Assembly (NCBI GenBank): GCA_017938725.1
Contig: JAGBAW010000027.1
Location: forward strand, 696 to 64,695
Source of the DNA: Bacilli bacterium
Lineage (GTDB): Bacteria > Bacillota_I > Bacilli_A > RF39 > UBA660
Direction of reading: 5' to 3'
DNA length: 64,000 bases
The stretch's first letter is position 1; every line of letters begins with the position of its first letter. The notes beneath the pieces are model-generated. The model searched no databases, had not been told where the DNA came from, and worked only from the letters and a program-made list of their open reading frames with translations. Shown here piece by piece: positions 2,558 through 4,799 of this stretch. A program made the translations under genes and the position numbers.

Positions 2558-3037
2558 ATGTCTAAGATTAGCAATGTTCTTACTATGCTTGAATATTTAA
2601 GTTCAGGAAGAAAATATAGTATAAAAGAATTATCAGAGAAACTAGAAGTGTCTTCTAGAATGATTAGAGTTTATAAAGAAGAAATAGAAAAAGCAGGAAT
2701 TTATATTGATACAATTAAAGGTCCTTATGGCGGATATGTATTAAATCAAAATATAAATATTCCAAAAAGATTTATTACACCAAATGCTATAAATATTAAA
2801 AACAAAGATTTATTTAACTTAATTAATAGAGCTATAAAAGAAAAAAGAAAATGTTTTATAGAGTATTATTCTAAAGATGAGAAAAGCACTTCAAAAAGAA
2901 CTATTCATCCATATGATTTAATTCTTTTAGGAAATGAATGGGGAGTTGCTGCTTATTGTGAATCTAAAGAAGAAATAAGACATTTTTATATTAATAGAAT
3001 TAAATCAATAGAAATTTTAGAAAATTTTTATAACTGA
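2558..3037 (+). CDS. WYL-domain transcriptional regulator (N-terminal HTH, C-terminal WYL)
   Basis: HTH-like YSIKELSEKLEVSSRMIRVYKEEI. C-terminal RTIHPYDLILLGNEWGVAAYCESKEEIRHFYINRI matches the WYL-domain pattern (PY.L....G.WYL.AYC......R.FR..RI). RBS aggagg 5 nt upstream of ATG 2558. Confidence 0.7.
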   Translation: MSKISNVLTMLEYLSSGRKYSIKELSEKLEVSSRMIRVYKEEIEKAGIYIDTIKGPYGGYVLNQNINIPKRFITPNAINIKNKDLFNLINRAIKEKRKCFIEYYSKDEKSTSKRTIHPYDLILLGNEWGVAAYCESKEEIRHFYINRIKSIEILENFYN

Positions 3038-3094
3038 CAGATATATTTCCTCTTCTTTTGTTATTCTATAACTAGAAAAAGGAGAGGTTTTGTC

Positions 3095-4177
3095 ATGATA
3101 AATCACAAACATACTGAAGAAACTGAAATTAATTTTTCAAAAATTGAAGAAAGATTATTACAAATAAATGATCCTAATTTATTTACAAATTTTGAATTTG
3201 GTAGAAAAGCAAGATATTTATTTAGAGATGTTCCTACATTGATTGTAGCAACCGGAGGTTCTAAAGCTGCAGCCCATTATCTTAAAATGTTTTTAGAATC
3301 AATAGAAACTTTATGTGAGGTAATTGAGCCAAGAGATTATTTTCATAAAAGAAATATTAATCAATTTAAAAATTTAATTGTGCTTTCTAGTAGTGGCAAA
3401 TCCAATGGATTATTAGAAATACTTAGAAATTTTCATGGCAGTAGTTATTTAATTACCAGTGAATATGTAAGGCAGGAAGATGATTACACTCATACAGCAG
3501 GGTATTTTAAAAATGAATCAACACCACTGTTTGATATTCTTTATTGGAGTAATGGAAAATATAAAAATAGGGAAAAAAGTTTTATCTCAATTATTCCTAC
3601 TCTTGCTCCTATGTTAATGTTTTTAGAGCTAAGTATATTAAAAGAAACCAAAAAGGGAGAACTTTCTTCAGAAGATTTAATGAAGATAAATGGAAAATTG
3701 AAACAATTATTAGAAAAAAGTAAAAATCGAATTAATAATCTTAACTTTAATTTTAAGGATACAAATTTAATTCAAATTATGTCAGGCTATGATACAACTT
3801 GTTCATCTTCTATTTTAGAATCTAATATGATAGAAACAGGAACTTCTAGTGTTGTTGTCCACGATAAAGGCTCTTATTGTCATGGTAGAAGTAATCTATT
3901 ATTTCAAAATCCTGGAAGTCCTATTATTTATTTAGCACATCAAATGAAAGATTTAGATAATGAATTATTACCAGTATTAACACAAGAATATCCTAATATT
4001 TTCCTATTCCATACTTTAGATGAAGATGTAAGTATATTTTGGAAAGAATATTATTTAGCTATACAGATGTATTTTTTATCTAAAAAAATAGCAGAAGATA
4101 AAGGTATTGATCTTACAATGCCTGAATATAATCCGCAAGTAGTAAAAAAATTATATAGATATAAAGGAGAAATGTGA
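3095..4177 (+). CDS. Hypothetical Rossmann-like protein, SIS-like/SLOG-like N-terminal domain plus ~200 aa C-terminal region of unknown function
   Basis: TLIVATGGSKAAAHYLKMFLES...NLIVLSSSGKSNGLLEIL resembles SIS-domain motifs (G.G.S...A, ..iS.SG.t.e.l). 58 nt downstream of the WYL gene with an RBS, and its stop nearly overlaps the next gene, so likely co-transcribed. Confidence 0.5.
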   Translation: MINHKHTEETEINFSKIEERLLQINDPNLFTNFEFGRKARYLFRDVPTLIVATGGSKAAAHYLKMFLESIETLCEVIEPRDYFHKRNINQFKNLIVLSSSGKSNGLLEILRNFHGSSYLITSEYVRQEDDYTHTAGYFKNESTPLFDILYWSNGKYKNREKSFISIIPTLAPMLMFLELSILKETKKGELSSEDLMKINGKLKQLLEKSKNRINNLNFNFKDTNLIQIMSGYDTTCSSSILESNMIETGTSSVVVHDKGSYCHGRSNLLFQNPGSPIIYLAHQMKDLDNELLPVLTQEYPNIFLFHTLDEDVSIFWKEYYLAIQMYFLSKKIAEDKGIDLTMPEYNPQVVKKLYRYKGEM

Positions 4178-4178
4178 T

Positions 4179-4799
4179 ATGGGAAACTTAACTTATATAA
4201 CTGGAAATTATGGCAAATATGTTTCTGTAAAAGAAAAGTTTGAAAATTCTGGAATCACAATAGATTATTTTAAATGTGATTTAGAAGAACCAGATATTAA
4301 TGATATAGAATTTATATCAAAAGAAAAAGCTAGACAAGCATTTGAAATATTAGGAACACCTGTGTTTGTTGCTGATTCTGGTTTTTATATACAAGATTAT
4401 CCTGGCAATCCTGGATATCCTGGTGCTTTTGTTAAAAGAAGTGGCATTTCATCAAATATTATAGAGTTATTAGAAACAATGAACCAAACTCAGAATAGGA
4501 ATTGCTATTTTCTTGATTGCTTAACATTCTTTGATGGTAAAGATTATTTTCAATTCTTTGGAGTTAGCAAAGGTACACTTTCACACGAAATAAGAGGAGA
4601 GAAAAACAAAAAAGCTAAATCAAATTTATGGTTTGTGTTTATACCAGTGAATTGTAGTAAAACTTTAGCTGAAATGTCGGATGAAGAAAGAAATAATAGA
4701 CCTGATAATAGAACTAGTGCTACAGATAAATTTATAGAGTGGTATATAATTAATTATAAAAATTCAAAAAGATTGGTAAAAGATATGAACACTAACTAA
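4179..4799 (+). CDS. Ham1/RdgB (ITPase)-family non-canonical NTP pyrophosphatase-like protein
   Basis: ITGNYGKYV (Ham1 TGNxGK), FVADSGFYIQDYPGNPGYPGAFVKRS (ADDSGL..G.PG.YSAR-like) and a C-terminal KTLAEMSDEE resembling the Ham1 tail. Start ATG 4179 immediately after the upstream stop; RBS aaaggag. Confidence 0.6.
   Translation: MGNLTYITGNYGKYVSVKEKFENSGITIDYFKCDLEEPDINDIEFISKEKARQAFEILGTPVFVADSGFYIQDYPGNPGYPGAFVKRSGISSNIIELLETMNQTQNRNCYFLDCLTFFDGKDYFQFFGVSKGTLSHEIRGEKNKKAKSNLWFVFIPVNCSKTLAEMSDEERNNRPDNRTSATDKFIEWYIINYKNSKRLVKDMNTN

Follow-up and report, generated by a model that had tools for sequence, protein, structure and literature searches.

A recurrent gene cassette of gut Bacilli joins a WYL regulator and a Ham1-like pyrophosphatase to a predicted new family of tandem-SIS enzymes

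Introduction

The enzymes GlmS, FrlB, and FraB carry catalytic Glu and His residues exactly 16 positions apart, together with S46/S91/S93/T96 (PMC10285752), and GlmS/FrlB-type enzymes perform enolization-based aldose/ketose-amine chemistry on sugar phosphates. In the frl and fra operons of Escherichia coli and Salmonella, a kinase (FrlD or FraD) makes the phosphomonoester ahead of the tandem-SIS deglycase (FrlB or FraB), and these operons further encode a transporter, an epimerase, and a GntR regulator. The Ham1-family pyrophosphatases RdgB, ITPA, Mj0226, and PH1917 act elsewhere, in the house-cleaning of inosine and xanthosine triphosphates (ITP/XTP). Here we analyze an operon that places these two enzyme types behind a WYL-domain regulator. 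It lies within a 64,000-nucleotide (nt) stretch of DNA from a Bacilli bacterium (GenBank assembly GCA_017938725.1, contig JAGBAW010000027.1, positions 696 to 64,695), hereafter the window, and we refer to its three genes and their products as WYL, SIS2, and Ham1.

Both outer components of the operon have relatives in defense. KomB of the Kongming system is a "defensive HAM1" in which the catalytic Asp is changed to His; it has an obligatory SIR2 partner and often an adenosine deaminase, and it serves as a deoxyinosine triphosphate sensor that activates the SIR2 NADase (bioRxiv 10.1101/2024.12.20.629578). For WYL transcription factors, sensing of nucleotides or single-stranded DNA and default-off control of neighboring enzyme operons are known or predicted (PMC9503650). 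The original prediction, made from the letters of the window, proposed that the operon is an undescribed nucleotide-centered module of defense or stress. Its novelty holds up: the WYL-SIS2-Ham1 module appears to be undescribed, as no NCBIfam, PADLOC (E ≤ 0.1), or PHROG family matches SIS2, and neither for "WYL domain" and "SIS domain" nor for Ham1 and SIS did our literature search return a paper joining the two.

Results

Three co-oriented genes form a compact operon

The three genes lie where the original prediction had them, packed in one orientation (Table 1). The first spacer measures 57 nt and the second gap 1 nt. WYL starts at the ATG at 2558, behind an AGGAGG motif, giving a 159-amino acid (aa) product whose length matches that of its homologues. 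A consensus scan of the forward strand found no terminator-like site within the operon, and WYL and SIS2 are probably co-transcribed because their spacer lacks a detected terminator; at 25% GC such a promoter/terminator scan is uninformative, with 26 promoter-like sites observed against 20.5 expected. The ribosome-binding site of Ham1 lies inside the last codons of SIS2, and the 1-nt gap predicts that Ham1 is translationally coupled to SIS2. GC content is about 24–25% across the window (cassette 0.256, window 0.243).

Table 1. Positions of the operon and of surrounding features in the window
Feature	Position	Strand	Details
Cassette promoter/leader	2485..2557	+	-10-like TATAAT at 2524-2529, then AGGAGG ribosome-binding site
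WYL regulator gene	2558..3037	+	159 aa; open reading frame (ORF) open from 2552 (161 aa)
WYL-SIS2 spacer	3038..3094	+	57 nt; holds GGAGAGG ribosome-binding site
SIS2 gene	3095..4177	+	360 aa; predicted tandem-SIS enzyme fold
Ham1 gene	4179..4799	+	206 aa; predicted Ham1/RdgB-fold nucleoside triphosphate (NTP) pyrophosphatase
103-nt direct repeat	342-444 and 4843-4945		80% identical; ~62-nt core with 3 mismatches
Terminator-like hairpins near repeats	~455-492, 4957-4975, 4978-5010		
DinD (PADLOC PDC-S13) pseudogene	1652-1921 and 2044-2484		profile positions 6-84 and 132-276

SIS2 is predicted to be a tandem-SIS enzyme

Against the Pfam SIS family (PF01380), SIS2 scored 23.0 bits (gathering score 25) over its N-terminal portion only, and some of its relatives pass. 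An AlphaFold2 (AF2) model built from 26 homologues (pLDDT 88, pTM 0.90) aligned over its full length (about 350–380 columns) to tandem-SIS structures in a Foldseek search of the PDB, with TM scores of 0.61–0.72. The best fold match, Lmo0035 (2aml; E = 5e-14, TM 0.72), was also the top sequence-profile match (5.8e-6). Others included the GlmS/GFAT isomerase domain, FrlB (8glr), NagB-II, and several "putative phosphosugar isomerases", and 7dnr, 3tbf, and 8fdb matched at E of about 1e-12. Sequence identity to characterized tandem-SIS deglycases and isomerases is only 11–17% (11% for 8glr).

The original prediction had seen in this protein a SIS/SLOG-type sensor signature followed by a ~200-aa domain of unknown function. 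Neither part survives, since all of the top 50 structural matches are SIS proteins and the supposed extra domain is the second SIS half of a tandem that spans the full chain. SIS2 has no Pfam or NCBIfam match to SLOG/LOG and no SLOG structural similarity in the Foldseek PDB search; that the 360-aa protein is a SLOG protein or a sensor was rejected on the fold search and on the conserved catalytic residues.

Profile alignment (hhalign) to E. coli FrlB and GlmS predicts the phosphate ligands of SIS2 to be S56 (GGS56), S98-x-S100-G101-x-S103, and E160-K-S-F-I-S165, and it places E247 and H263(-G264) on the catalytic Glu and His of those enzymes. The two residues are separated by 16, and the Ser spacing is identical to that of the FrlB phosphate loop. 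Among 366 full-length family members, E-16-HG[RP] is kept in 358 and GGS in 360. Motifs specific to the family are H256-D-K (H-[DE]-K), H263-G-R265 (HGR, not HGP), P343-E-Y-N-P, and a C-terminal Tyr (Y-x-G), and the Arg, Tyr, and Trp residues peculiar to the family include R20, R80, W151, R265, Y345, and Y354. Because SIS2 combines a tandem-SIS fold and phosphate loops with a near-invariant Glu-16-His pair, it reads as an enzyme and is probably active. We found 539 relatives in a word-indexed search, 329 cluster representatives in an exhaustive profile search, and 442 relatives in a metagenome scan; judged by these comparisons, SIS2 represents a new tandem-SIS family of several hundred members that has no curated model.

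SIS2 shares with FrlB and FraB the tandem-SIS fold, the S-x-S-G-x-[ST] phosphate loop, and the Glu-16-His pair, and the operons have in common a preceding enzyme that makes a phosphomonoester (a fused PfkB in distant SIS2 relatives) and an adjoining dedicated regulator. FrlB differs in having HGP where SIS2 has HGR, its E98 is not conserved in SIS2, and identity does not exceed the range above. The operon in the window has an NTP pyrophosphatase and a helix-turn-helix (HTH)-WYL protein and lacks the transporter, kinase, and epimerase of the frl and fra operons. SIS2 matches no NCBIfam deglycase equivalog, and its operon is not of the frl/fra type. The GlmS isomerase domain, NagB-II, AgaS, and Lmo0035 (of unknown function) are its best structural matches and have the same active-site layout; compared with the GlmS class, SIS2 lacks a glutaminase domain, falls below the Pfam SIS gathering score, and has no linked hexosamine-pathway genes. 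The original prediction would have given way to an ordinary sugar-phosphate isomerase in a core metabolic setting, and what we found instead are gene contexts that are neither conserved nor sugar-metabolic.

Ham1 keeps the catalytic residues and changes the base-contact motifs

The predicted divergent Ham1/RdgB-fold NTP pyrophosphatase was borne out by a match to Pfam Ham1p_like spanning profile positions 2–186 of 186 (E = 8e-22, 78.5 bits; gathering score 22.5), together with a failure to reach any NCBIfam equivalog cut-off (best 93.7 bits against 203). Among solved structures it is closest to the archaeal NTPases Mj0226 (2e-15) and PH1917, followed by KomB (8zsg, 5e-13). Ham1 keeps the catalytic and phosphate-binding residues T8-G-N10, K13, E36, K48, and D66-S-G, for which the reference residues in RdgB numbering are T-G-N, K13, E41, K53, and D69. 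When E. coli RdgB is aligned with 60 homologues from cassettes, conservation reaches 70–95% or more at TGN-GK, at the Glu and Lys, and at DSGF, and an alignment with Mj0226 concurs. The RdgB alignment also shows changed base-recognition motifs: FGYDPIF has become S-x-LW-x-VF, and SHR has become N-[RH]-[TIV]-S-A. Since the catalytic set is kept and the base-contact motifs are replaced, we predict that Ham1 is an active pyrophosphatase with altered base specificity. Ham1 thus shares with RdgB, ITPA, Mj0226, and PH1917 the full-length Ham1p_like domain and the TGN-GK, Glu, Lys, and x-D-S-G elements, and differs from RdgB and ITPA in its base contacts and in that its gene belongs to a SIS2 module or is fused with SIS2. 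At least one related locus (L153) has, separate from the cassette Ham1, a canonical RdgB-type gene.

Kongming likewise has a Ham1-family protein in a three-gene operon, and KomB is fairly close to Ham1. Membership of that system was nonetheless rejected: D66 is kept, and neither the operon nor its flanks encode a SIR2 (KomC) or adenosine deaminase (KomA) domain. The Asp of x-D-S-G is present in at least 95% of cassette Ham1 proteins. Ham1 has no PADLOC (E ≤ 0.1) or PHROG match. In three loci (L017:1152-2123, L022:7076-8053, and L095), the cassette Ham1 carries an extra C-terminal extension of ~120 aa, for a total of 323–325 aa.

A half-sized WYL regulator co-diverges with SIS2

The WYL protein, by its domains a one-component transcription regulator, consists of a winged HTH (about residues 8–60) and a WYL ligand-binding domain (about residues 85–153), corresponding in 161-aa ORF numbering to Pfam HTH_11 at residues 10–62 (E = 2.2e-8) and Pfam WYL at residues 87–155 (E = 1.8e-17). 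In PADLOC it matches generic WYL models only (9e-29). Its closest solved relatives, 7tb5, PafBC, BrxR, and CapW, are about 290–318 aa or longer. Like DriD, PafBC, CapW, and BrxR, which have a winged HTH-WYL-WCX architecture, it has an N-terminal HTH and a WYL domain and is encoded directly upstream of the genes it would regulate. Unlike them, it is half-sized (159 aa), ends a few residues past the WYL domain, and lacks the WCX dimerization domain. Those regulators serve many defense or damage cargoes, whereas the WYL protein has stayed with one enzyme family through deep divergence.

Over 119 loci, the divergence of WYL tracks that of SIS2 (Spearman 0.78), with WYL always better conserved than SIS2. 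This co-divergence, together with the position of WYL directly upstream of SIS2, points to a dedicated WYL-SIS2 pair as the core of the system. By these comparisons the two appear to be an ancient co-diverging pair, as is typical of substrate-specific regulators and their enzymes.

A start-anchored comparison of 56 upstream regions showed that only the ~45 nt closest to the WYL start are conserved. Related cassettes have an extended -10 element (TGnTATAAT) followed by a semi-conserved TAAT-N7-ATTA-like element, which is a candidate WYL operator.

The third partner of the WYL-SIS2 pair is interchangeable

We analyzed gene contexts in the wider SIS2 family at 88 metagenome loci, out of 442 relatives found. 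Among the 72 loci in which an ORF precedes SIS2, that ORF is WYL in 68, and Ham1 is adjacent or fused in 33/80. Natural fusions that keep the SIS2 signature join SIS2 to Ham1 (P0161, P0178) or to a PfkB kinase (P0175, P0185, P0193, P0210, P0261, P0209), and they occur behind WYL in both forms, as WYL + PfkB-SIS2 (L085) and WYL + Ham1-SIS2 (L087). Two further loci (L088, L124) have the arrangement WYL + BtpA + SIS2 + Ham1. The third activity is thus interchangeable, being supplied by an adjacent or fused Ham1, a fused PfkB kinase, or BtpA. The ~347-aa proteins found after SIS2 in L064/L072 and L068–L070 were rejected as a fourth partner family, as they are mutually unrelated and have no Pfam, NCBIfam, or PDB match. 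The cassette-type Ham1 (PGYPGAFVKR...SxLWxVFxP) is retained even where SIS2 is only ~30% identical. The original prediction's nucleotide-centered module gains plausibility from the natural Ham1-SIS2 fusions; its defense role is without direct support.

Several wider-family loci have features of their own. Four PfkB-SIS2 fusions (P0193, P0210, P0261, P0209) contain two CxxC pairs, one in the kinase domain and one in the linker (alignment columns ~120–135 and 395–400), a pattern that suggests a zinc-ribbon-like element absent from ordinary PfkB kinases. At L092:635-7412, a PfkB-SIS2 gene is preceded, with an overlapping start, by a gene for an 824-aa protein with an N-terminal Cof-type HAD phosphatase; the remaining ~540 aa are unannotated, and the two genes neighbor an NgoMIV-type restriction-modification pair. 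A lineage common in the human gut (L137:5001-10290) has a Ham1-less WYL (194 aa) and SIS2 (306 aa) immediately upstream of rpsL-rpsG-fusA-tuf, and the arrangement is identical in L138, L144, L146, L150, L154, L157, L164, and L168–L174, from many samples.

The cassette occupies unrelated sites in small-genome gut Bacilli

Taking one genome per species, we found 78 loci, all in uncultured low-GC gut "Bacilli/Tenericutes"-type metagenome-assembled genomes. The trio keeps its order and spacing in about 60 of the 78, far above chance, in support of the tightly linked combination named in the original prediction. Overall, the cassette recurs in about 160 gut-bacterial loci, and its hosts are small-genome gut Bacilli of humans, rabbits, and ruminants. 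When flanking ORFs were clustered, the three core genes appeared in 65–76 loci and no flanking family in more than 7. Because upstream conservation starts ~45 nt before WYL and different genomes have unrelated flanks, the unit promoter-WYL-SIS2-Ham1 is a discrete cassette placed at unrelated sites. Its modules are mosaic: mean pairwise identity among cassettes is 0.78 for WYL, 0.59 for SIS2, and 0.62 for Ham1, yet L040 and L043 share 97% identity in WYL, 92% in SIS2, and only 62% in Ham1, and L010 and L050 share 82% in Ham1 but 52% in SIS2. The sequences that flank related cassettes have no counterpart elsewhere in the window, the genomes being too diverged, and no empty site emerged from contigs with an identical Mbeg1-like neighbor, all of which share the same context.

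In raw counts, the 128 immediate neighbors span 143 Pfam families. Commonest are NUDIX/PDC-S07 (7), ABC transporters (4), and RhuM/PDC-S05 (3–4), while HMUDK_hel, DUF1848, dCMP deaminase, and Mob_Pre were each met twice and ClpB, formate-THF ligase, MurD, and other housekeeping genes make up many of the neighbors. NUDIX genes are mildly enriched near cassettes and, in one subgroup, lie co-oriented directly upstream of WYL; as stand-ins for Ham1 they were rejected, since their frequency is alike with Ham1 (7/96) and without it (5/68). DinD, the DNA-damage-inducible protein D, is a recurrent minority neighbor, intact and directly upstream of WYL in L004 and L032 and fragmentary in L025 and L079. 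Defense-candidate genes thus form a thin scatter among the neighbors and give the surroundings a weak defense-island flavor. SIS2 has no relatives in 50,697 INPHARED phage records, 72,556 PLSDB plasmids, or IMG/VR contigs. With no SIS2 on phages, plasmids, or viral contigs and no PADLOC or PHROG match for SIS2 or Ham1, the defense label of the original prediction finds no direct support.

At two loci (L020:7042-9748 and L005:4494-6949), SIS2 adjoins three genes, whose products are a protein with the helical domain of 5-hmdU DNA kinase (HMUDK_hel, E of about 1e-107), one of the radical-SAM/SPASM type, and a 219-aa protein that is HD-like by eye only. This gene set resembles phage thymidine-hypermodification machinery, yet it is chromosomal in bacteria.

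Repeats and a DinD pseudogene flank the operon in the window

The operon had been placed in a repeat-bounded islet next to a DinD pseudogene. The pseudogene is as described, with N- and C-terminal halves in two ORFs and in-frame stops between them. The 103-nt direct repeat is real as well, but it occurs solely in contigs of the source organism, and cassettes elsewhere lack it. Each copy comes after promoter-like sequence, has a structured ~62-nt core, and is followed by a terminator-like hairpin, and the left copy folds with z = -5.7; an Rfam scan of window positions 1–9000 gave no match. As a general feature, we rejected the repeats as att sites or mobile-cassette boundaries on account of this apparent promoter-core-terminator build and their restriction to one organism's contigs. 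They are more likely a small RNA or cis-regulatory leader upstream of 618-1319 and of the Mbeg1-like gene at 5092-6156 than a cassette boundary. The 233-aa product of 618-1319, for which the original prediction named an ART fold, has no Pfam, NCBIfam, PADLOC, PHROG, or PDB-sequence match, and a single-sequence AF2 model of it was unusable (pLDDT 34). Downstream of a [FeFe]-hydrogenase gene (7221-8699), the gene at 8868-9437 encodes an HTH_3 (XRE/MqsA-antitoxin-like) protein whose C-terminal part is a DUF6442 membrane region, an annotation taken from the identical contig L001.

Discussion

A regulator, a phosphomonoester-generating enzyme, and a tandem-SIS enzyme together make a known kind of operon; the new part is the SIS family at its center. 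Ham1 and PfkB have a common output, a phosphomonoester, which is the handle bound by SIS phosphate loops, and from this we infer a two-step pathway. We tentatively favor a WYL-gated pathway that removes a non-canonical nucleotide or an N-substituted phosphosugar, encoded by a self-contained and probably autoregulated operon. Ham1 would convert an aberrant purine-like (d)NTP to its 5'-monophosphate plus pyrophosphate, and in lineages with PfkB the kinase would carry out the reaction X-OH + ATP -> X-phosphate. A dimeric SIS2, with Glu from one subunit and His from the other, as in FrlB, would then open, isomerize, or deglycate the phosphosugar part, making removal irreversible in that the compound could no longer be re-phosphorylated. 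The logic would parallel that of FrlD and FrlB, in which a kinase acts ahead of a deglycase, except that a pyrophosphatase would take the kinase's part. WYL would act as a repressor, keeping the operon off from an operator that overlaps its own promoter, and derepression would come with the binding of its ligand, be it the substrate, a nucleotide related to it, or a signal of nucleic-acid damage. The role served in small-genome gut Bacilli would be nucleotide-pool sanitation or detoxification, directed at damage products or nucleoside-analogue toxins.

Several points weigh against this pathway. We know of no tandem-SIS enzyme that uses a nucleotide. The substrate would have to be unusual, since the ring opening that Amadori-type chemistry requires is closed to ordinary purine N-glycosides, and the usual Ham1 products, IMP and XMP, require no disposal. 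With Ham1 adjacent or fused in only 33/80 wider-family loci, SIS2 has no strict need of Ham1, and about 160 loci show no linked gene for transport or for further catabolism. The cassette's varied insertion sites and shuffled modules fit conflict systems better than housekeeping sanitation. The ligand and operator of WYL are putative, and the pathway as a whole was built by comparing sequences and structures. A more specific version, which we consider unlikely, is that SIS2 acts on a nucleotide outright, destroying a non-canonical nucleoside 5'-monophosphate, supplied by Ham1 or, in other lineages, by a fused PfkB kinase, through Amadori-type opening or deglycation of its ribose-5-phosphate, with the short WYL protein sensing the same nucleotide. 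A ring-opened or modified purine ribotide, or a phage- or competitor-derived analogue, would be its candidate substrates. If true, this would bring a new reaction class to the SIS superfamily, and uncultured gut Bacilli would have a further, inducible layer of immunity or detoxification of the nucleotide pool that is new and possibly anti-phage.

Defense is one possible, minority reading at present. An infection or DNA-damage signal would free the WYL repressor, and Ham1 and SIS2 would irreversibly deplete a nucleotide that the phage needs, be it one of the canonical purine (d)NTPs or a modified dNTP specific to the phage; we regard such anti-phage or abortive-infection activity as improbable. 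Defenses based on nucleotide depletion do exist, as in the dGTPase and dCTP deaminase systems, and one defense system, Kongming, already uses a HAM1 protein, but our Ham1 lacks the Asp-to-His change and the SIR2 partner of the "defensive HAM1". CapW/BrxR/DriD-type regulators are the nearest solved relatives of WYL, yet the ancient WYL-SIS2 co-divergence is unlike BrxR-type regulators, which pair with many cargoes. Presence at unrelated sites in different genomes and module shuffling (WYL 97% and SIS2 92% against Ham1 62%) would suit a defense cassette; its native base composition (0.256 against 0.243 for the window), the lack of SIS2 relatives in phage, plasmid, and IMG/VR collections, and the lack of PADLOC or PHROG matches for SIS2 and Ham1 would not. 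Some flanks contain DinD (PDC-S13), RhuM (PDC-S05), NUDIX (PDC-S07), DUF1848, dCTP-deaminase-like, Mob_Pre, or restriction-modification genes, against which stand many housekeeping neighbors and the stable position of WYL-SIS2 beside rpsL-rpsG-fusA-tuf (str operon) in one human-gut lineage. Were the cassette a defense system after all, it would represent a new nucleotide-targeting mechanism distinct from Kongming.

The chemistry of SIS2 could alternatively serve the catabolism or repair of sugar-amine phosphates (Amadori/fructosamine-like or aminosugar), as in frl, fra, and aga operons, with SIS2 as deglycase, deaminase, or isomerase, WYL replacing a GntR, DeoR, or RpiR regulator, and Ham1 a loosely coupled house-cleaning gene. 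SIS2 does resemble FrlB, FraB, GlmS, and NagB-II in fold and catalytic signature, but its 11–17% identity to characterized deglycases and isomerases and its lack of an NCBIfam equivalog match set it apart from them. PfkB-SIS2 fusions echo the pairing of FrlD/FraD kinase with FrlB/FraB deglycase, a Cof-type HAD sugar phosphatase precedes one such fusion, and BtpA/SgcQ is a phosphosugar-operon family; even so, about 160 loci yielded no linked transporter, phosphotransferase system, or further sugar-catabolic gene. Ham1 is missing from over half of the wider-family loci, whereas the retention of its distinct subfamily beside SIS2 in a ~30%-identity branch, together with natural fusion, argues for direct functional coupling. 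Gut hosts meet dietary Amadori compounds (PMC10285752), but WYL domains sense nucleotides or nucleic acids rather than sugars, and on balance this explanation seems quite unlikely. That SIS2 is a non-catalytic nucleotide or phosphosugar sensor gating or partnering a Ham1 effector, as first proposed, is highly improbable. SIS domains do act as sensors in RpiR/MurR regulators, and PDB titles record UDP-GlcNAc binding to the GFAT isomerase domain; sensors, however, usually lose catalytic residues, and here Glu-16-His and the phosphate ligands are near-invariant over 366 members. The module moreover already owns a dedicated sensor domain in WYL, most distant loci have SIS2 without Ham1, and SIS2 has no SLOG similarity.

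The favored account, removal of a non-canonical nucleotide or phosphosugar in two steps, is open to experiment in vitro, since it involves three small soluble proteins and natural Ham1-SIS2 and PfkB-SIS2 fusions. If it is true, SIS2 and its several hundred relatives would constitute a new tandem-SIS enzyme family, and the cassette would for the first time tie sugar-phosphate chemistry of the SIS type functionally to nucleotide house-cleaning of the Ham1 type. Its minimal HTH-WYL regulator, devoted to one enzyme family, would offer an accessible system for the question of WYL ligands. A conserved accessory cassette of abundant, uncultured, small-genome gut Bacilli would thereby gain a function.

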